NCBI RefSeq assembly: GCF_013122565.1 | Contig: NZ_CP053258.1 | From: Escherichia coli | Lineage (GTDB): Bacteria > Pseudomonadota > Gammaproteobacteria > Enterobacterales > Enterobacteriaceae | Length of the DNA stretch: 64,000 nt | Reading direction: 5' to 3' (one strand) | Shown here: piece after piece, positions 7,040-29,270 of the stretch | Layout: each line of letters opens with the position of its first letter | Position numbering within the stretch: the stretch's first letter is position 1 | Notes under the pieces: generated by a model | What the model was told of the DNA's origin: nothing | Seen by the model: only the letters and a program-made list of their open reading frames with translations | Databases searched by the model: none | Translations under genes and position numbers: made by a program

Positions 7040-8401
7040 GTGGAAAAAGAAAATATCACCCTCGATCCGCGTTCTTCATTTACTCCATCTTCGTCGGCAG
7101 ATATTCCCGTGCCACCAGATGGATTAGTTCAACGCAGTACCCGAATTAAACGCATTCAAACCACCGCCATGTTGTTATTATTTTTTGCGGCGGTAATCAA
7201 TTATCTCGACCGCAGTTCGCTGTCAGTAGCAAATTTAACGATTCGTGAAGAATTGGGATTAAGTGCCACCGAAATCGGCGCTTTGCTCTCCGTGTTTTCA
7301 CTCGCTTACGGGATTGCGCAACTTCCTTGCGGCCCACTATTGGATCGTAAAGGCCCACGCCTGATGCTGGGACTGGGGATGTTCTTCTGGTCACTGTTCC
7401 AGGCAATGTCTGGCATGGTGCACAGCTTTACGCAGTTCGTGTTGGTGCGTATCGGTATGGGGATTGGTGAAGCGCCGATGAACCCATGCGGTGTAAAAGT
7501 CATTAACGACTGGTTCAACATCAAAGAGCGCGGACGCCCGATGGGCTTCTTCAACGCAGCTTCTACCATTGGCGTTGCCGTAAGCCCACCGATTCTGGCG
7601 GCGATGATGCTGGTGATGGGCTGGGGCGGGATGTTTATTACCATTGGTGTACTGGGGATTTTTCTCGCCATCGGCTGGTATATGCTCTATCGCAACCGCG
7701 AGCACGTAGAACTGACTGCCGTTGAACAAGCTTATCTCAATGCAGGTAGCGTCAATGCCCGCCGAGATCCGCTCAGTTTTGCCGAATGGCGCAGCTTGTT
7801 CCGTAACCGCACAATGTGGGGAATGATGCTCGGATTCAGTGGCATCAACTACACTGCGTGGCTGTATCTGGCCTGGCTTCCTGGTTACCTGCAAACAGCC
7901 TATAACCTGGATTTAAAAAGCACAGGGTTGATGGCGGCTATCCCTTTCCTGTTTGGGGCTGCCGGGATGCTGGTCAACGGTTACGTTACTGACTGGCTGG
8001 TCAAAGGGGGAATGGCTCCGATTAAAAGCCGTAAGATCTGCATTATTGCCGGGATGTTCTGTTCTGCCGCCTTTACGCTGATAGTACCACAAGCGACAAC
8101 ATCCATGACGGCGGTTCTGCTGATTGGCATGGCACTGTTCTGTATTCACTTTGCCGGAACATCCTGCTGGGGCTTGATCCACGTCGCAGTTGCTTCTCGC
8201 ATGACTGCGTCGGTGGGCAGTATCCAGAACTTTGCCAGCTTCATCTGCGCCTCTTTCGCGCCGATCATTACTGGTTTTATTGTTGATACCACCCACTCAT
8301 TCCGTCTGGCACTAATCATCTGCGGTTGCGTCACCGCAGCGGGGGCACTGGCATACATCTTCCTGGTTCGTCAGCCGATCAACGACCCACGTAAAGATTA
8401 A
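7040..8401 (+). CDS. lgoT: MFS transporter, L-galactonate:H+ symporter
   Basis: 453 aa, GTG start, 12-TM MFS pattern; recognised as LgoT/YjjL. Confidence 0.9.
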   Translation: MEKENITLDPRSSFTPSSSADIPVPPDGLVQRSTRIKRIQTTAMLLLFFAAVINYLDRSSLSVANLTIREELGLSATEIGALLSVFSLAYGIAQLPCGPLLDRKGPRLMLGLGMFFWSLFQAMSGMVHSFTQFVLVRIGMGIGEAPMNPCGVKVINDWFNIKERGRPMGFFNAASTIGVAVSPPILAAMMLVMGWGGMFITIGVLGIFLAIGWYMLYRNREHVELTAVEQAYLNAGSVNARRDPLSFAEWRSLFRNRTMWGMMLGFSGINYTAWLYLAWLPGYLQTAYNLDLKSTGLMAAIPFLFGAAGMLVNGYVTDWLVKGGMAPIKSRKICIIAGMFCSAAFTLIVPQATTSMTAVLLIGMALFCIHFAGTSCWGLIHVAVASRMTASVGSIQNFASFICASFAPIITGFIVDTTHSFRLALIICGCVTAAGALAYIFLVRQPINDPRKD

Positions 8402-8449: not shown

Positions 8450-10114
8450 TTAAAATGTTTCCCAGTTCTCCTCGCTATCTGCCACGGCCATTTTACGCGG
8501 CGTAGCTGGCGTCACGGTTTTTACTACAGCCGATGTTTCACGCTGCTGTTGCTGCTGTTGCTGAATTCGGAACACTGCCACTGCTTCGGTCAGGCGACTG
8601 GCCTGCTCTTCCAGCGCGGCGGCGGCGGCGGCAGATTCTTCCACCAGCGCGGCGTTCTGTTGAGTTACCCGGTCCATCTCAGCAACCGCTAAGCCAACCT
8701 GATCGATACCACGGCTCTGCTCATCAGAAGCAGAAGCTATTTCGCCCATAATGTCCGTCACGCGGGTCACGGCACTGACAATCTCCGCCATTGTTTCCCC
8801 GGCGCTTTCGACCAGCGTAGAGCCAACATCCACTTTCCCCACCGAGTCTTCAATCAGGCTTTTAATTTCACGAGCCGCCTGGGCGCTGCGCTGGGCCAGA
8901 TTACGCACTTCTCCCGCGACCACCGCAAAACCGCGCCCTTGCTCACCCGCACGCGCAGCCTCAACCGCGGCGTTCAAAGCCAGAATATTGGTCTGGAAGG
9001 CAATGCCGTCAATTACGCTGATAATATCGGCGATTTTCTGCGAACTGGTGGAGATATCGCGCATAGTCTGCACCACGTTATCTACCACTTTGCCGCCGCG
9101 TTGCGCCGTTTCAGAAGCACTTAATGCCAGATGGCTGGCCTGGCGCGCATTCTCGGCGTTCTGTTTCACCGTTGCGGTCAGTTGCTCCATGCTGGCTGCA
9201 GTCTCTTCCAGCGAAGCGGCCTGTTGCTCGGTGCGCGAAGAGAGATCGTTATTGCCGGTAGCGATTTCGCTGGCACCGCTATAGATGGCATTGGCCCCGT
9301 TGCGCACATCACCGACGGTACGCATCAGCTCTCCCTGCATATGGCGCAAACTCTCAGCCAGTTGCCCCATCTCATTAGAGCCATCCACCTCAATCGGTTT
9401 CACCAGATCGCCGCTTGCAATATGACGAATGCTGTCAATCAGGCGATTCATTGGCGCTACCAACGAGGCTTTAATACCGAACCAGACGGCGAAGATGACC
9501 GCCAGTACGGCGATCATCACGCCCACCAGAATCCACATCGCCTGGCTGTAGGAGGCATGGTTATCGCTGACGGCGATATCATAGAGCCGATCGTTTTGCT
9601 CCATGTAAGCCACATACTGCTTCTCGAAACCGTCCTGATATCCCTGGGTCGGCTGATCAAAGAACTCGTTGATTTTGCCTGCACCTAACAGTTGGATCAG
9701 CTCCGCCAGCGCATTGTGATAAATATCGTAATTACGTTTGATCTCTGCCGCTGCGGCGGTGCTCTGACGCGGGTCACGCGGCAACGCTTCGTAATCCGCC
9801 CAGTTTTTTTCCGCCTGTTTCAGCGAAATACTGGCACTCTGCATCAGCTCAGCAACGGTTGAACCGCTACCAATATTGTTCTGATCCATCATGTAGCGGA
9901 TACCCGCGCGGTTGAGGGTGTTACGCGTCTGCAACAACGCGACCCAGCTGCCATTCAGCGTGGATTGCTGCTGGCGAATGGTTTGTAAAACAGTGAAATT
10001 TTCTTTGTCATTCTTTAAGGCATTAAAGAACAGACCGCCTGATGTCAGTTGTAAAAGGCCAAAAACGGCCAAAACCAGCAGTAAGCTGGTCACGATCTTG
10101 ATACGTTTTAACAT
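8450..10114 (-). CDS. tsr: Methyl-accepting chemotaxis protein I (serine chemoreceptor)
   Basis: 554 aa; HAMP, methyl-accepting signalling domain, C-terminal NWETF pentapeptide; recognised as Tsr. Confidence 0.95.
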
Positions 10115-10144
10115 GGTTTCTCTTTCCTGTGGACCGATGCAAGA

Positions 10145-10171
10145 TTTTCGGCCTGAAATGAGAAAACTTTA
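10145..10171 (-). promoter_or_regulatory. Putative sigma-28 (FliA) promoter of tsr
   Basis: Minus-strand reading TAAAGTTT-N11-GCCGAAAA matches the class III flagellar consensus TAAAGTTT-N11-GCCGATAA with one mismatch, about 30 nt upstream of the tsr start. Confidence 0.55.
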
Positions 10172-10341
10172 TAGGTAGCGACTTGAAACTGGTTAATTTT
10201 ACCTCACTTTTTTAATTTTTGTTCAAAAATACAATAACCACTTATTGATACATTTTCTTTTCTTATTTTTTTCACACGAATTGTATCTATTTTGAACGAA
10301 ATATTTTATAGAGTGTGGAATTTTAAGAAAGGACATCTGAA

Positions 10342-10884
10342 ATGTTAAACCGTGACTTCGATCATCTCTCAACGCTATTACATCTCTTTTTTGAACGTGA
10401 GGATATTTGCCAAAAGCTTAATATTATTGACCAAAACAATATCACCGGTTGGGAAGTGTGGTTCCAGGTAGAGTTTGCTAATATGCTCTGCTCAACAGAC
10501 CATGAATGGTGGCGTGAACAAGCACTTTCCTGTGATATGCGCAAAAAACCTGAGCGCCCGACACTACGCACAGATTTCTTACTACGTAAAAAAGGCTGGG
10601 CACAAGATAGCTATATCGCGCTTGAAATAAAACAAAACAGAGACGCGACCAGTTGTGTTAAAAATATGATCGCAGACTTAGAAAAAAGCGCAAAAATAAA
10701 ACGTTCCGAACTCGATTTACGCAGTTTCTGGACCTTGGGTATCACCCCTATGATAGACAGGGAAAGGCTGGACTCTCTCATCGATTGCTATTTAGATGAG
10801 AAATTTTATCTTACTAAATCTCGTAAAAAACACGTTTTACTTAAAGAAATAAATAACACACCATATTGCTATATTGTTATTTAA
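10342..10884 (+). CDS. Hypothetical 180-aa protein in an AT-rich islet (possible PD-(D/E)xK-like fold)
   Basis: ORF with Shine-Dalgarno (aagaaagga) about 8 nt upstream; flanks strongly AT-rich; I do not recall this gene between tsr and btsT in K-12; motif TDFLL...IALEIK is compatible with a nuclease-like core (weak). Confidence 0.55.
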   Translation: MLNRDFDHLSTLLHLFFEREDICQKLNIIDQNNITGWEVWFQVEFANMLCSTDHEWWREQALSCDMRKKPERPTLRTDFLLRKKGWAQDSYIALEIKQNRDATSCVKNMIADLEKSAKIKRSELDLRSFWTLGITPMIDRERLDSLIDCYLDEKFYLTKSRKKHVLLKEINNTPYCYIVI

Positions 10885-11176
10885 TATTTATAGCATGAAT
10901 ATAATTTTTAAATGAGTTACACAACCGAGGGCTAAAAATCGCTTCGGTTGTGATCATCATCACATAAATAACCTTCATAAACCTTGCTCAAAACCGCTCA
11001 ACCGCAAAACTGACCGCTTACGTCCCTAAAATAACCACTCAGTTATTTACCTTACTTTACGCGCGCGTAACTCTGGCAACATCACTGCAGGATAGCGGTC
11101 AATTTACCTCCTCAAACGCAACGCAAACCTAGAACGGCTTCGGCCAACTATTAATCAATACATGCCAGGTTTTACT

Positions 11177-20819: not shown

Positions 20820-22240
20820 TGGCAGGGTTAAATAAATATCAGGCGTATCCGGAGTATAGGGATTCTGGGGTGGAGTGGTTGGGGGAGATACCCTCACACT
20901 GGAGCGTTAGCAAGCCCCGTTATATGTTTAATTTCGGCAAAGGGCTTACAATTACCAAAGAGAATCTCCAGGACGACGGGATACCTTGCATTAACTACGG
21001 TGAAATCCATTCAAAATATGGTTTTGAAGTATCCCCCAAAATTCACCCATTGAAATGCGTTGATGAGAAGTATATAAAAGATAATTCAGGCTCATTACTT
21101 TTAAAAGGAGACATTATTTTTGCAGACACATCTGAAGATATTGATGGTTCCGGTAATTTCTCACAACTAATCAGCGATAATATTTCATTCGCTGGTTATC
21201 ATACAATTATTGCCAAACCACTTAATAGAAGAAATTGGCGATTTTATGCTTATCTTCTTGATTGCAAAGAGTTGCGAACCCAAGTTAGACATGCAGTTAA
21301 GGGAGTAAAGGTATTTAGCATTACACAAGCTATTTTACGCGGCCTTTCTATTTGGCTCCCTACGGATGATGAACAGAGTAAAATAGCTGATTTCCTCGAC
21401 CACGAAACTGTAAAAATCGACAACCTAATCAAGAAACAACAACAACTCATTGAACTACTGAAAGAAAAACGTCAGGCAGTGATTAGCCATGCGGTGACCA
21501 AAGGGCTAAATCCTGATGTGCCGATGAAAGATTCTGGGGTTGCGTGGTTGGGGAAAATACCAAAACATTGGGAAATGAGTAAACTACGCTACATGTTTCG
21601 CTTCGGAAAAGGTCTAACAATTACAAAAGAACATCTGCACGATGAGGGGGTTCCATGTGTTAACTATGGCGAAATACATTCTAAATTTGGTTTCGAAATC
21701 GACCCTCAAATTCACAAATTAAAATGTGTTGATGAATCGTACATTCTAAATAACCCCGACTCATTGATCTATAAAGGAGATATTATATTTGCAGATACAT
21801 CTGAAGACATTGACGGCGCTGGTAATTTTACACAATTGATTAGCGATAACCAAATATTTGCCGGTTATCACACTATTATATTACGCCCTCTTAATAGAGA
21901 GTCCTTAAGGTTTTATGCATATATATTTGATAGCAAAGCACTACGGGCACAAATTAGTAATGCAGTGAAAGGCGTGAAAGTATTTAGTATTACTCAAGCC
22001 ATTCTTCGAAGTACATCGATATGGTTTCCACCATTATCAGAACGAGAACGTATTGTTGCATTTCTCGATAACCAAACAATAAAAATCGATACCCTAATTG
22101 AGAAACAACTCCACCAAATAGCTCTCCTAAAAGAACGCCGCACCGCCCTTATCTCCGCTGCCGTCACCGGAAAAATCGACCTACGCAACTGGACCGCCCC
22201 CATCCCCGAAGCGGAAACACCCACGGAGGCCAGCGCATGA
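20819..22240 (+). CDS. hsdS: Type I R-M specificity subunit with two near-identical target-recognition halves
   Basis: 473 aa; aa 16-228 and aa 239-452 are clearly homologous; each half ends in a conserved coiled-coil-like region (LIKKQQQLIELLKEKRQA / LIEKQLHQIALLKERRTA). Confidence 0.85.
   Translation: MAGLNKYQAYPEYRDSGVEWLGEIPSHWSVSKPRYMFNFGKGLTITKENLQDDGIPCINYGEIHSKYGFEVSPKIHPLKCVDEKYIKDNSGSLLLKGDIIFADTSEDIDGSGNFSQLISDNISFAGYHTIIAKPLNRRNWRFYAYLLDCKELRTQVRHAVKGVKVFSITQAILRGLSIWLPTDDEQSKIADFLDHETVKIDNLIKKQQQLIELLKEKRQAVISHAVTKGLNPDVPMKDSGVAWLGKIPKHWEMSKLRYMFRFGKGLTITKEHLHDEGVPCVNYGEIHSKFGFEIDPQIHKLKCVDESYILNNPDSLIYKGDIIFADTSEDIDGAGNFTQLISDNQIFAGYHTIILRPLNRESLRFYAYIFDSKALRAQISNAVKGVKVFSITQAILRSTSIWFPPLSERERIVAFLDNQTIKIDTLIEKQLHQIALLKERRTALISAAVTGKIDLRNWTAPIPEAETPTEASA
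20864..22175 (+). repeat. Internal tandem duplication (about 670-bp unit, 2 copies) within hsdS
   Basis: Direct comparison of the two halves of the translated ORF and underlying DNA (e.g. ggggtggagtggttggggga vs ggggttgcgtggttggggaa). Confidence 0.7.
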
Positions 22241-25200
22241 ACCACGACATTACAAAAGAGGTTAACCTGCAAAACGACATTATCGCGCAGATGGTGGAAA
22301 AAGGCTGGATTGTCGGCAAAGGTGACGGCTACGACCGGGAACGTGCGCTATACGCACAAGACACCTTAAACTTCGTAAAAACCACCCAACCGCAGGAGTG
22401 GGAGAAATTCGCACGCGTTTATCCCAACGACACCGAGCGCCATTTCCTCGACGCGCTGGTCGCGCAGCTTAAAAAAGCCGACAGCAACGCCACTGATATT
22501 CAGTCGCGCACCTGGGGTACGCTCGGCGTACTTCGCCACGGCCTGAAAATTCGCAATGCCCGTTTTTCGCTGTGCCAGTTTAAACCGGAACATAATCTCA
22601 ACCCGGAAACGCTGGCGCGCTATCAGCAGAATATCTGCCGTATTGTGCCGGAACTGGTCTACAGCCCGTATGCCTCAAATAGCGTCTTTGCAGAAACGGG
22701 CGTGAAAGCCAAAAAATGGCGTATCGATCTGGTGCTGTTTATCAACGGCCTGCCGGTTGCCACGCTGGAGCTAAAATCCGAATTTAAACAGGCGGTGCAG
22801 AACGCCATTGCCCAGTACAAAAAGACCCGCCTGCCGAAAGATCCCGCGACCAATAAACCTGAACCGCTGCTGACCTTTAAGCGCGGCGCGCTGGTACATT
22901 TTGCCGTCAGCCAGTATGACGTCTTTATGACCACCAAACTCGCCGGTGACAGCACCTTCTTCCTGCCGTTTAACAAAGGCACCAAAGACGGCGGCGCAGG
23001 CAACGAGATCCCCGAAGATACTCGCCGCTACGCCACAGATTATCTGTGGAATGAAGTGCTGCTGCCGGACAACTTATTAAAAATCCTCGCCAGTTTTGTC
23101 CATTTGCAGATTGAAGAAAAAGAGGACTGGAACGGGCTGAAAGCGAAGAAAGAGAGCCTGATTTTCCCGCGCTATCACCAGTGGGATGTGGTCAATAAAC
23201 TGCTGGAGGCCGCGACGATTGAAGGCACCGGCCACAAATACCTGATTCAGCACAGCGCCGGTTCCGGTAAATCGAACTCCATTGCCTGGACCGCCCACCA
23301 GCTTTCTCGTCTATACGACGTTAACGGGGAAAAACTGTTCCACTCCGTTATCGTGGTGACGGACCGTACGGTGCTGGACGACCAGCTTCAGGACACCATC
23401 TGGCAGTTCGAACATGCCGACGGCGTGGTCGGGCGCATCAATAACAGAGAGGGCGACGGCTCCAAATCGGAAAAGCTCGCCAGCGCGCTGGAAAACTCGC
23501 AGCCGATAATCATCGTCACCATCCAGACATTCCCGTTCGTACTGAAAGCTATCGAAAACAGCATCAGCCTGAAGCAGCGTAAATATGCGGTGATTGCCGA
23601 CGAAGCGCACTCATCGCAGAGCGGTTCCACCGCCCGTCAGCTTAAAGAAGTGCTGATGAGCGAAGAGATGGATGATGACGTGGTGCTGTCGTCAGAAGAT
23701 ATTCTGGATGCGACCATTGCCGCCCGGAAAGGCAGCAGTAACCTGAACTACTACGCCTTTACCGCCACGCCAAAATCCAAAACCCTGGAACTCTTTGGTC
23801 GCTGTCCGCGTCCCGATGAACCGGCCTCAAAAACCAATAAACCTGAGGCCTTCCACGTCTACTCCATGCGCCAGGCAATCGAAGAAGGCTTTATCCTCGA
23901 CGTGCTGAAAAACTACACCAACTACAAAGTGGCGTATCAGTTGCTGCAAAAGCTGGAAGATGAAAACCGCGAAGTCGATAGCAAACGGGCGAAGGTAAAA
24001 CTCAATCAGTGGGTGACGCTGCACGACCACAATATCTCGCAGAAGGTGAAGGTGATTGTGGAGCACTTCCGCAAACATGTGATGCATCTGCTTGGCGGCC
24101 AGGCTAAAGCGATGGTGGTCACCAGTTCACGCAAAGCCGCCGTGCGCTACAAGCTGGCGTTTGATAAATACATTAGCGAGAACAATTACCAGAAAATCAG
24201 CGCGATGGTGGCGTTTTCCGGGGAAGTTGAATTCCGGGAAGGCGACCATAACAGCCTGGCATTGTTAAACCAGAAATTTACTGAAATAAACATGAACCCC
24301 GGCCTGAAAGGGCGGGATATGCGCAAAGCCTTCGACAGCGATGATTATCAGGTCATGCTGGTTGCCAATAAATTCCAGACCGGTTTTGACCAGCCGAAGC
24401 TGTGCGCGATGTACGTGGATAAACCCCTCGGTGGCGTCGAGTGCGTGCAGACACTCTCCCGCCTGAACCGCACCTATCCGGGCAAAGCGGAATCAGGCAC
24501 TTTTGTCCTCGATTTTTATAACGATCCAGACGAGATCCTCGGCGCATTCCAGCCCTATTTCCAGACGGCGGAACTGACCGATGTCAGCGATCCGCAGCAG
24601 GTGTTCGATCTGTTTGAAAAACTGCGCGCCACGCAGATTTTCCAGTGGCATGAAGTCGAGCAGTTCTGCGAGGCATACTTCATCAAAAATAAATCGAATG
24701 CGGCGATCAGTAATATCTGCAAACCGGCGGTCGAACGCTGGAAAAAGCGTTATCTGATGGCGATAGACGCCTATTTGACCGCCAAAGAGATGTTCGAGCG
24801 CACCAAAAAAACGGGCGATACAGTATTAATCACCAATGCGGAAAACAGCTTTAAAGCCTGTAAGCAGGAGAAAGATCGTCTGGAGATTTTCAAGAAAGAT
24901 CTCGGCAGCTTTGTTCGTTTTTATGAATTTATGTCGCAGATCGTTGAATACGATGACAAGGATCTGGAAAAGCTAAGCCTGTTTGCTCGTCATCTGCGTC
25001 CGCTGCTGCATGAGCAACGTCTGGAAGAGGATGAAATTGATCTCAGTAATGTGGAGATGAGTCACTATCGTTTATCGAAAATCCATGAGCAAGATTTACG
25101 CTTACAGGAAGAAACGCCTGACTATACGCTGGATGCAAGTAATAATATTGGTACGGCAAAAGCGAAAGATAAAAAAGAGGAGTTTTTATCGCAGGTGCTT

Positions 25201-25500
25201 TCTCGGATGAATGAATTATTCATTAGCGACCATTTGACCGACAAAGATATGATCAGCAATGCTTTTGCGGTGTATAACAAAATAACTGAAAATGAAAATG
25301 TTATGACACAAATTAAAAACAATCCCCCAGAACAAGCGATTCTTGGTGATTTCCTCCAGGCAGTTGATAATGCTGTAATGGACAGTAATGACGCTCGGCA
25401 AGAATTTATGTTGCAATATTTATCCGATCCAGCTCGGGCAAAGGGCTTTGCTTATCTGATGTTTGATATGCTAACGGGGAAAATTGCTTTACCAACATAA
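22237..25500 (+). CDS. hsdR: Type I restriction enzyme R subunit (endonuclease/helicase)
   Basis: 1087 aa; N-terminal PD-(D/E)xK-like DLVLFINGLPVATLELK; SF2 motifs GSGKS and IADEAHSS (nt 23596-23610); ATGA overlap with hsdS stop. Confidence 0.88.
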   Translation: MNHDITKEVNLQNDIIAQMVEKGWIVGKGDGYDRERALYAQDTLNFVKTTQPQEWEKFARVYPNDTERHFLDALVAQLKKADSNATDIQSRTWGTLGVLRHGLKIRNARFSLCQFKPEHNLNPETLARYQQNICRIVPELVYSPYASNSVFAETGVKAKKWRIDLVLFINGLPVATLELKSEFKQAVQNAIAQYKKTRLPKDPATNKPEPLLTFKRGALVHFAVSQYDVFMTTKLAGDSTFFLPFNKGTKDGGAGNEIPEDTRRYATDYLWNEVLLPDNLLKILASFVHLQIEEKEDWNGLKAKKESLIFPRYHQWDVVNKLLEAATIEGTGHKYLIQHSAGSGKSNSIAWTAHQLSRLYDVNGEKLFHSVIVVTDRTVLDDQLQDTIWQFEHADGVVGRINNREGDGSKSEKLASALENSQPIIIVTIQTFPFVLKAIENSISLKQRKYAVIADEAHSSQSGSTARQLKEVLMSEEMDDDVVLSSEDILDATIAARKGSSNLNYYAFTATPKSKTLELFGRCPRPDEPASKTNKPEAFHVYSMRQAIEEGFILDVLKNYTNYKVAYQLLQKLEDENREVDSKRAKVKLNQWVTLHDHNISQKVKVIVEHFRKHVMHLLGGQAKAMVVTSSRKAAVRYKLAFDKYISENNYQKISAMVAFSGEVEFREGDHNSLALLNQKFTEINMNPGLKGRDMRKAFDSDDYQVMLVANKFQTGFDQPKLCAMYVDKPLGGVECVQTLSRLNRTYPGKAESGTFVLDFYNDPDEILGAFQPYFQTAELTDVSDPQQVFDLFEKLRATQIFQWHEVEQFCEAYFIKNKSNAAISNICKPAVERWKKRYLMAIDAYLTAKEMFERTKKTGDTVLITNAENSFKACKQEKDRLEIFKKDLGSFVRFYEFMSQIVEYDDKDLEKLSLFARHLRPLLHEQRLEEDEIDLSNVEMSHYRLSKIHEQDLRLQEETPDYTLDASNNIGTAKAKDKKEEFLSQVLSRMNELFISDHLTDKDMISNAFAVYNKITENENVMTQIKNNPPEQAILGDFLQAVDNAVMDSNDARQEFMLQYLSDPARAKGFAYLMFDMLTGKIALPT

Positions 25501-25513
25501 AAATACGTTGATA

Positions 25514-25539
25514 GCCGGGGTCGCACTTTCTACCCCGGC
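25514..25539 (+). terminator. Hairpin downstream of hsdR (gccggggt ... accccggc)
   Basis: 8-bp perfect stems, 10-nt loop, followed by an AT-rich tract; weak T-run. Confidence 0.4.
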
Positions 25540-25565
25540 CATATTATTTACAATAAGGAATAGCT

Positions 25566-26279
25566 ATGCTGAAGATGATTAAAGATTTTAAATTCAAAAA
25601 ATACATTAAAAAATTACGTGAAGAAGGTTTGTTATTTTATGTTTCTTTCGGGTTTATATTTACATTGTTAATGGAAGTTGATGATCGATTACCGTACTAT
25701 CTTCAACAAGACTTCTTTTTTGATACACTTATAGGATTTATGCCAATCAATATATTCTTTGTTTTGATTTGCACATATATATTTTTCAATGCCGTCCATG
25801 CGCTTATTTCACCCTATAAATTTCAAAGAATTGGTGAGAAATTCCTCTCTGAACTTGATAAAAGAACACAACAAATTGGCTTTATTATTTCATTCATATG
25901 TTTTGGCATGACTTTGTTTTGTGCACTGGTGTGGTTGCTGTTTTTTGATATGAATACTGAAAGTTACTACGCAAAATATACATTAAATTTTTTAGCTGCT
26001 TTTATCATTATGATTATAATTTCTTCAGTAGTTAATCCAGTAATGAACAGAACATTCCAAAAAATGAAGGAATCGGACTCACATGGAAATTCAAAAATAA
26101 TTCTTATAATTATAATCATTATATTATTACTATTATTACCAATTGCGTGCATTATCAATAAAAATAAAACAATTGAAATCAACATTAAGAAAGAAACTTA
26201 TCAGCAAATAAAAGAAAAAACAAAGATGAAACCTGAAGATTATATCAAAAAATTGATTGCTGATATTAAATTCAACTAA
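25566..26279 (+). CDS. Hypothetical AT-rich membrane protein
   Basis: 237-aa ORF with good Shine-Dalgarno (aagga, 7 nt spacing); several hydrophobic segments including a poly-Ile/Leu stretch; very low GC; not recalled at this position in K-12. Confidence 0.5.
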   Translation: MLKMIKDFKFKKYIKKLREEGLLFYVSFGFIFTLLMEVDDRLPYYLQQDFFFDTLIGFMPINIFFVLICTYIFFNAVHALISPYKFQRIGEKFLSELDKRTQQIGFIISFICFGMTLFCALVWLLFFDMNTESYYAKYTLNFLAAFIIMIIISSVVNPVMNRTFQKMKESDSHGNSKIILIIIIIILLLLLPIACIINKNKTIEINIKKETYQQIKEKTKMKPEDYIKKLIADIKFN

Positions 26280-26283
26280 TATC

Positions 26284-26318
26284 TATATGTACCCTGGTTT
26301 CTTCCAGGGTACATATAA
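26284..26318. repeat. Perfect 14-bp inverted repeat (tatatgtaccctgg / ccagggtacatata) with 7-nt loop
   Basis: Seen in sequence between the AT-rich ORF and yjiS; lies at the distal edge of the variable block. Confidence 0.5.
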
Positions 26319-28349: not shown

Positions 28350-29270
28350 TTAGTACTCAAGCCATAAATCGTGCTCACGGTCAGGCAAGGGCTGCTCTAA
28401 TGCCTGTATTTGCTCTGCCGAAAGTCCGGTAATCTTTTGTATCCATTCAGGATCTACACCATTCTGCAAAAATAATCGAAGAATGCGCTGTTCCCCTTTT
28501 ATACATCCATCATTATGAATTCGCTCTGCAATCGTCATTATTCGCTCCCTGTGTTGTGGCATTCGACGGGTTAGTTCGCTGATAAACTTCTTAAAACGCG
28601 CTTCATCGCCAGTCAGTAAAATGTAATTTAACAGCGCAGTTATCTGGCTGTCATTAGCACACTCTGTAACCAGTAATACTACCAGTTGATCAATAAGCTC
28701 CATCAGATCGCGCTGGCTAATATGCTTTTGGATCAACTCCAACAGGGCGACTCTGCGATGCTGCACAATCTCGTCGTCTGGCACGACAGTGACATCCACC
28801 AGCGGGAACGCTGCAGTATAAAGTTTCCGTGCAGTAGTCGGGTCGGCAAATTCGTCCAGCCAGCACAGGGACCAGGGGTAAGGACTACGGCTACCGTGAT
28901 AAAACAGCATCGGGATGACCAGCGGTAGCTGCCGGCGTTTATCATGCTCGATATGGCGCTGCATCACTGCCATGGAATATCGCATCAGGCGAAAGGCCAT
29001 ATGAATGTCCTCGCGGCTCTGATGTTCAATCACCACATAAATATAACCATCGCCTTCGCGGGTCTTTACCGACCACAGAATATCGGAATGTAGCGCCCGC
29101 AATTTTTCATCGACAAAGCTGGCGGATTCCAGTTTTAAGCTGTCGAGATCGCACAGTTCACGTAAATCTTTAGGTAAGTGGATCTCCATAAAATCCCGCG
29201 CGGTATCCGGATGCGTGAGAAAAGATTTAAACAATGCGTCATGCGGCGTGCTGGTTGTGAAGTTTGTCAT
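28350..29270 (-). CDS. rpnD: Rpn-family recombination-promoting nuclease (YhgA-like, PD-(D/E)xK)
   Basis: 306 aa; N-terminal HDALFKSF...; C-terminal conserved Rpn tail; appears intact here. Confidence 0.85.

Follow-up and report, generated by a model that had tools for sequence, protein, structure and literature searches.

What kind of protein is encoded by the single gene that separates tsr from btsT in some Escherichia coli chromosomes, and what might it do? The question is raised by a 64,000-nt stretch of E. coli DNA (contig NZ_CP053258.1), here called the window, in which the tsr-btsT spacer holds a low-GC islet with one open reading frame (ORF) for a 180-aa protein. The original prediction, made from the letters of the DNA, had described this ORF in a spacer widened to about 1 kb of low-GC DNA, had regarded it as unfamiliar from K-12, and had found the protein compatible with a small PD-(D/E)xK-like fold. 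The ORF was confirmed exactly as quoted, and its product begins MLNRDFDHLSTLLHLFFERED. The spacer measures 1062 bp from the start of tsr (10114, minus strand) to the RefSeq start of btsT (11177), with a GC content of 28-44% over 10100-11000 and 50-60% in the flanks; the K-12 spacer measures 377 bp and lacks the ORF. The range first given for the islet, 10140-11160, is essentially the intergenic region, and the islet proper is narrower:

8450-10114, minus strand: tsr.
About 10175-10948: the low-GC single-gene islet, with bounds taken from the alignment to K-12 and from other alleles.
10342..10884, plus strand: coding sequence of the 180-aa protein (RefSeq WP_000934391.1, 'hypothetical protein').
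11177-13327, plus strand: btsT with its RefSeq start, followed by yjiX and yjiA.

The AlphaFold2 model of the protein, built from 22 sequences (predicted local distance difference test score 86.4, predicted template modelling score 0.85), shows a compact single-domain member of the PD-(D/E)xK superfamily, as had been considered at the outset. Two N-terminal helices are followed by helix 38-50, strands 54-64, 74-83 and 91-98, helix 102-116 and strand 126-136, and the alpha-beta-beta-beta-alpha-beta core fold of the superfamily is present. The PD-(D/E)xK signature is complete: Glu44 lies on the first core helix, Asp78 on the second strand, and Glu95 and Lys97, in the arrangement E-x-K, on the third. 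The topology of the model would bring these four residues together in a putative active site. In an alignment of 89 family members (20-80% identity) E44 and D112 are invariant, and E38, W40, Q42, E59, D78, E95, K97, C105, K115 and G133 are conserved in at least 90% of the sequences. The pattern D-x(10-22)-E-x-K occurs in most of the representatives scanned.

Foldseek found nothing in the PDB at E<=1e-3, and its top matches were PD-(D/E)xK nucleases. The structural comparison figures were 8.1 for the nuclease domain of CinB, 7.3 for CidB, 6.8 for SwaI, 6.7 for both BglII and OkrAI, 6.4 for both BstYI and NucC, and 5.9 for BamHI, at 8-15% sequence identity. Against AFDB50, the same program returned only uncharacterised members of the family, from Pectobacterium, Vibrio, Pseudomonas, Acinetobacter, Haemophilus, Neisseria and Sulfurimonas; a few relatives already bear automatic 'PD-(D/E)XK' labels. 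No significant match was obtained in Pfam (query and the 89 members), NCBIfam, PHROGs, PADLOC, Rfam or the PDB sequences, the last searched with profiles from two of our alignments (A2 and A4). The sole Pfam signal was Tn7_TnsA-like_N (query E 0.11; E<=0.1 for 7 of the 89 members). A match of the query to the PADLOC oMTase profile (E 9e-4 over 66 residues) was dismissed as chance, since ten other members gave no match below E 0.01. Compared with described PD-(D/E)xK families, the protein has a two-helix N-terminal extension of its own (residues 2-31), and its invariant D112 and K115, on the helix past strand 3, are likewise its own. We regard it as a superfamily member with a predicted intact catalytic site, forming a previously undescribed family of its own.

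The protein would work like a small restriction-type endonuclease. It departs from each of the known systems with which we compared it. Its identity to the Type IIP enzymes BglII, BamHI, OkrAI, BstYI and SwaI is 8-13%, and a cognate methyltransferase, which marks Type II restriction-modification systems, did not stand beside the gene in any of 61 loci. Identity to the nuclease domain of Wolbachia CinB (PDB 7esz) is 9%; CinB is a 659-aa two-domain cytoplasmic-incompatibility factor paired with CinA, and neither such a partner nor this architecture is present here. Solitary modification-dependent (Type IV) enzymes such as Mrr also have a PD-(D/E)xK domain, are accessory and methyltransferase-less, and lie beside the same restriction hot spot of E. 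coli. Type IV enzymes, however, carry a separate DNA- or modification-reading domain or a nucleoside triphosphatase (NTPase) partner, whereas here there is one domain of 180 aa, for which neither an Mrr_cat or other Pfam match nor a reader domain or NTPase partner was found. The known anti-phage families (PADLOC-DB v2.0.0) gave no significant reproducible match. An adjacent CD-NTase and cyclic-oligonucleotide binding, the marks of NucC-type effectors of the cyclic-oligonucleotide-based signalling system CBASS, are absent. In summary, the defining features that were tested for TnsA, Type II restriction-modification, the PADLOC families, toxin-antitoxin modules and CBASS effectors are all lacking.

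A homologue search had been proposed as a check. A word-indexed search gave 39 relatives, mostly of 180 aa, from Citrobacter, Serratia, Enterobacter and Pseudomonas; identity falls to 38% among the full-length ones. When 1.84 billion representatives were searched exhaustively with a profile, 321 clusters (50% identity) passed E<=1e-3 and 196 passed E<=1e-10; nearly all are 175-195 aa long, and the family occurs mainly in Gammaproteobacteria. The gene has the same tsr-btsT position and orientation in four species of Citrobacter, in Phytobacter and in one other Enterobacterales genome. Between the islet ORF and its Citrobacter orthologue the proportion of nonsynonymous differences (pN) is 0.107 and that of synonymous differences (pS) 0.845, which is saturated; pS is 0.63 for tsr and 0.38 for btsT. 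The range of homologues, the number of clusters and these pN and pS values show that the ORF is not a chance reading frame: it is a real gene under purifying selection, with a ratio of about 0.13. The E. coli and Citrobacter copies are at least as old as the divergence of the flanking genes, without recent exchange between the genera.

For the genomic context in other genera, 51 loci were fetched through alignment A2 and added to those collected earlier; the A2 loci are biased to closer relatives. All-against-all clustering of the 1017 ORFs in the resulting 61 loci revealed no conserved partner gene, and no neighbour family recurred beyond local synteny. The nuclease gene is solitary, separated from the genes on either side by 50-600 bp, and about eight copies are split or truncated. 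The adjoining genes are mostly housekeeping or regulatory: acyl-CoA synthetase, Lrp/AsnC, FucU, a sigma-54 activator, UbiD, RtcB, TetR, a CRP/FNR regulator, PrpC/AcnD (in several Acinetobacter), Gnd and transporters of the major facilitator superfamily. Defence or mobile neighbours are few: Serratia fonticola has an integrase island with HsdR, Marinospirillum a retron-type reverse transcriptase, and Vibrio qingdaonensis IS110 together with a UvrD/GajB-like helicase. tblastn found no copies in phage and plasmid collections, and a phage or plasmid origin was rejected. The overall interpretation offered at the outset was supported in part.

Two genera showed local arrangements of their own. In at least eight Acinetobacter genomes (L051, L052, L056-L060; around 10001-10540) the family gene directly follows prpC/acnD of the methylcitrate cycle in the same orientation, with a gap of 50-178 bp in seven of eight and of 638 bp in L057, and co-transcription with the metabolic operon is possible. 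In four Xenorhabdus genomes (L021-L023, L041) the gene just downstream is convergent; its 238-aa product contains an S24 LexA/UmuD-like peptidase domain, and no other recurring neighbour has a possible link to DNA damage. Domain fusions were not substantiated, as the three longer relatives are artefacts. The N-terminus of one resembles, by eye and without a scan, a fragment of a transposase associated with repetitive extragenic palindromes, and the others reflect miscalled starts or read-through.

Comparison of the tsr-btsT interval across E. coli, another check that had been named, showed the islet in 362 of 5426 complete genomes (about 7%), each with one chromosomal copy. Identity to the islet of the window was at least 99% in 355 genomes, 95-99% in four and 80-90% in three; the O157:H7/O55:H7 lineage and scattered other E. 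coli carry the gene. K-12 shares only the outer 22% of the interval and has an unrelated 91-bp filler at the place of the islet. We rejected the K-12 allele as a deletion scar, as the filler scored at the shuffled mean against four islet alleles. In BL21 the hpa (4-hydroxyphenylacetate) gene cluster adjoins btsT in place of the islet, and the spacer is therefore a multi-allelic site; at least three non-homologous alleles occur in E. coli, namely the nuclease islet, the hpa cluster of the BL21 type and the 91-bp filler of the K-12 type.

The islets themselves behave differently from their surroundings. O157, APEC37 and SCU-316 differ from the window at 0-2 positions in about 770 bp of islet, with flanks diverged by about 1.3-1.9%. 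The EC6622 islet is a mosaic, identical in its 5′ half and about 4% diverged in its 3′ half, while its flank divergence is like that of other carriers. GF43 shows about 13% divergence in the islet, confined exactly to the stretch from about 10156 to 10945, and about 1% in the flanks. Near-identical or 13%-diverged islets in differently diverged flanks show that the history of the islet is decoupled from that of the flanks: islet alleles were swapped or retained independently of the adjoining core genes. The tract of identity reaches about 250 bp into tsr, and the APEC37 copy has an internal stop. In GF43 (L069, 4986-10095) a Na+/H+ antiporter and a tripartite ATP-independent periplasmic transporter replace lgoT between lgoR and tsr, as in Citrobacter braakii (L015); this layout and the 13%-diverged islet suggest that the whole neighbourhood is a mosaic with other Enterobacteriaceae.

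The composition of the gene (GC 38.5%, and 38% at third codon positions) departs from that of tsr (54 and 61%) and btsT (56 and 69%). The elements in and around the islet, with the gene beyond tsr, are the following:

7040-8401, plus strand: lgoT.
10145..10171, minus strand: sigma-28-type promoter of tsr, TAAAGTTT-N11-GCCGAAAA, conserved in K-12, BL21, Citrobacter and locus L013.
10175..10341, plus strand: 5′ region of the islet, about 28-30% GC, the presumed promoter region of the 180-aa gene.
10330-10333, plus strand: Shine-Dalgarno-like AGGA, 8 nt 5′ of the ATG, read from the sequence.
10920..10952, plus strand: stable hairpin (-19.8 kcal/mol, z -3.9) directly past the stop codon.
10949..10964, no strand assigned: TGTGATCATCATCACA, a CRP-like palindrome that abuts the islet on its right, kept in the K-12, BL21 and Citrobacter alleles.
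10993-11000 and 11013-11020, plus strand: two ACCGCT(C/T)A boxes in direct orientation, outside the islet and kept in K-12, BL21 and Citrobacter.

The left edge of the islet lies directly upstream of the tsr promoter, which fits the consensus of FliA (sigma-28) promoters. On the right, the two boxes presumably correspond to the BtsR/YehT operator of btsT. The CRP-like palindrome, a predicted site, belongs to the btsT control region, and this site and region are kept in all three allele types of the spacer. Palindrome and boxes are consistent with the published control of yjiY/btsT by YehT/BtsR and cAMP-CRP (PMC5431176). As its edges abut conserved promoter and control sites, the islet fills a neutral centre between divergent control regions and disturbs neither.

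Within the islet, the 5′ region could not be aligned among E. coli, GF43, Citrobacter and L013, and a simple scan of its plus strand found no strong sigma-70 consensus. On the minus strand there are two sigma-70-like matches (10320-10348 and 10196-10225; TTAACA-17-TAAAAT, 10/12), which face tsr and are antisense to the leader of the nuclease gene; their count is not above the shuffled expectation. The hairpin at 10920-10952, whose 3′ arm adjoins the CRP-like site, is probably a 3′-end or terminator element without a U-tract, and Citrobacter and strain GF43 have a hairpin of different sequence at the equivalent place. The islet is marked by neither terminal inverted repeats nor a target duplication, and neither a tRNA nor an Rfam element was found at it. 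A transposon-like islet was rejected: two short flanking direct repeats (D2 and D6) stand in swapped order in AT-rich DNA and were judged to be chance.

On the other side of btsT, a hypervariable restriction cluster (window 14580-26300) adjoins yjiA, 3.4 kb from the islet. Its ORFs are:

15312-16046, minus strand.
16090-18189, minus strand.
18465-20819, plus strand.
20819-22240, plus strand.
22237-25500, plus strand.
25566-26279, plus strand.

By comparison with a 96.7%-identical genome, the cluster contains BrnT/BrnA, a 244-aa hypothetical protein, a 699-aa GmrSD-type enzyme, the type I M, S and R genes and a 237-aa hypothetical protein; none of the complete genomes collected agrees with this stretch at more than about 97%. 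Its counterpart is Mrr/EcoKI in K-12 and HNH/DUF262 with an EcoAI-type system in O157. The cluster beyond yjiA differs in every islet carrier examined, and the nuclease gene therefore has no fixed partner there. Another PD-(D/E)xK protein, a recombination-promoting nuclease of the Rpn family, is encoded between yjiR and mdtM (window 28350-29270, minus strand) and was recognised from its resemblance to the annotated SCU-316 and PapRG-06-5 genomes.

What, then, would the islet protein do? We infer an active metal-dependent phosphodiesterase that acts on nucleic acid, most probably DNA, without a partner protein. The phosphodiester backbone would be cut in a metal-dependent manner by D78, E95 and K97 with E44. 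As the gene is tolerated without a methyltransferase, either normal host DNA would lack the substrate or the enzyme would be silent or latent; the AT-rich promoter region probably keeps the gene poorly expressed. Our leading guess, a tentative one, is that the protein is a stand-alone exclusion nuclease against foreign or modified DNA, that is, a Type IV-like or solitary restriction enzyme. Such a nuclease would target, methyltransferase-less, DNA unlike that of the host (modified or incoming), and the host would tolerate the gene because the target differs from its own DNA. The presence/absence polymorphism, the deeply diverged alleles at one site, the foreign-looking composition, the frequent decay and the restriction enzymes as best structural neighbours speak for exclusion. 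Against it weigh the lack of enrichment in defence islands, the absence from mobile elements in the phage and plasmid collections, the synteny within genera and the lack of a sensing domain. A rival reading is a structure-specific nuclease of repair or recombination whose targets would be host DNA with branches, nicks or damage, and not foreign DNA. It would be an accessory housekeeping enzyme that the cell can do without, comparable to the small PD-(D/E)xK enzymes Hjc, RecU, Vsr and T7 endonuclease I. The small single-domain size, the strong purifying selection, the mostly core metabolic or regulatory neighbours, the position kept within genera and the purely chromosomal occurrence all agree with it, and a structure-specific substrate would account for tolerance without a methyltransferase. 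We consider this role unlikely and rank it next after exclusion.

PD-(D/E)xK homing endonucleases are known, for example I-Ssp6803I, and the islet has several traits of a free-standing enzyme of this type, which would cut the empty K-12-type spacer and have the islet copied in during repair from the filled allele. The islet consists of one gene, lacks any other mobility gene and sits precisely between two promoters; it is present or absent at one site, where the empty allele holds the non-homologous filler; it varies by 0-2 differences per 770 bp despite about 1.4% divergence of the flanks, and the limits of the 13%-diverged allele coincide exactly with the islet edges; and other genera use different intergenic sites. 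However, the saturated pS of 0.85 against Citrobacter at the same site, above that of the flanks, points to long residence and not to recent invasion between genera, and the polymorphism and decoupling in E. coli are equally explained by homologous recombination in the flanks; the identity reaches into tsr. The gene was also not found in phages, plasmids, introns or inteins, and its frequency in E. coli is low. Homing of the islet appears improbable, and so, if anything a little more, does the wider notion of a chromosomal homing-type family that spreads one-gene islets by gene conversion without transposase, integrase, phage or plasmid. It is similarly doubtful that the protein is a toxin or abortive-infection effector (DNase or RNase), silent until triggered, with its control element elsewhere or in a cis RNA. 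Neither a conserved adjacent small ORF nor an antitoxin family was found nearby, the 50-600 bp gaps leave no operon with the small partner gene of a Type II toxin-antitoxin module, there is no Rfam match, promoter-like sites are no commoner than in shuffled sequence, and the protein has no sensor domain. A remnant of a Tn7-like transposon, with a lone TnsA-type endonuclease domain, is very improbable and largely refuted. The profile likeness to the TnsA N-terminal endonuclease domain (PF08722) is weak and covers residues 56-108, the D...ExK region; it is the only Pfam signal, and UniRef gives two relatives that label, but none of the 89 members reaches 1e-3. The TnsA C-terminal domain (PF08721) is lacking, tnsB/C/D-like neighbours are absent from the 61 loci, no Tn7 genes or ends are present here, and the islet has no terminal repeats or target duplication.

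Public genomes have contained the ORF from the O157:H7 sequences onwards, annotated only as a 'hypothetical protein'. What is new is an uncharacterised family within a well-known kind of enzyme, with an account of its one-gene islet and population behaviour, and this novelty is modest. The hypothetical protein now has a testable biochemical identity, that of a predicted intact nuclease with the restriction fold, and its family of several hundred clusters lies outside all current family libraries. A role in repair would simply make it one more accessory nuclease; self-driven spread would amount to an unusual form of gene mobility for bacterial chromosomes. As a barrier to phage or incoming DNA, the protein would add a defence gene of minimal, single-domain design, with consequences for the phage susceptibility and genetic manipulation of O157 strains. 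How a restriction-like nuclease without a partner is tolerated is a question with practical implications.
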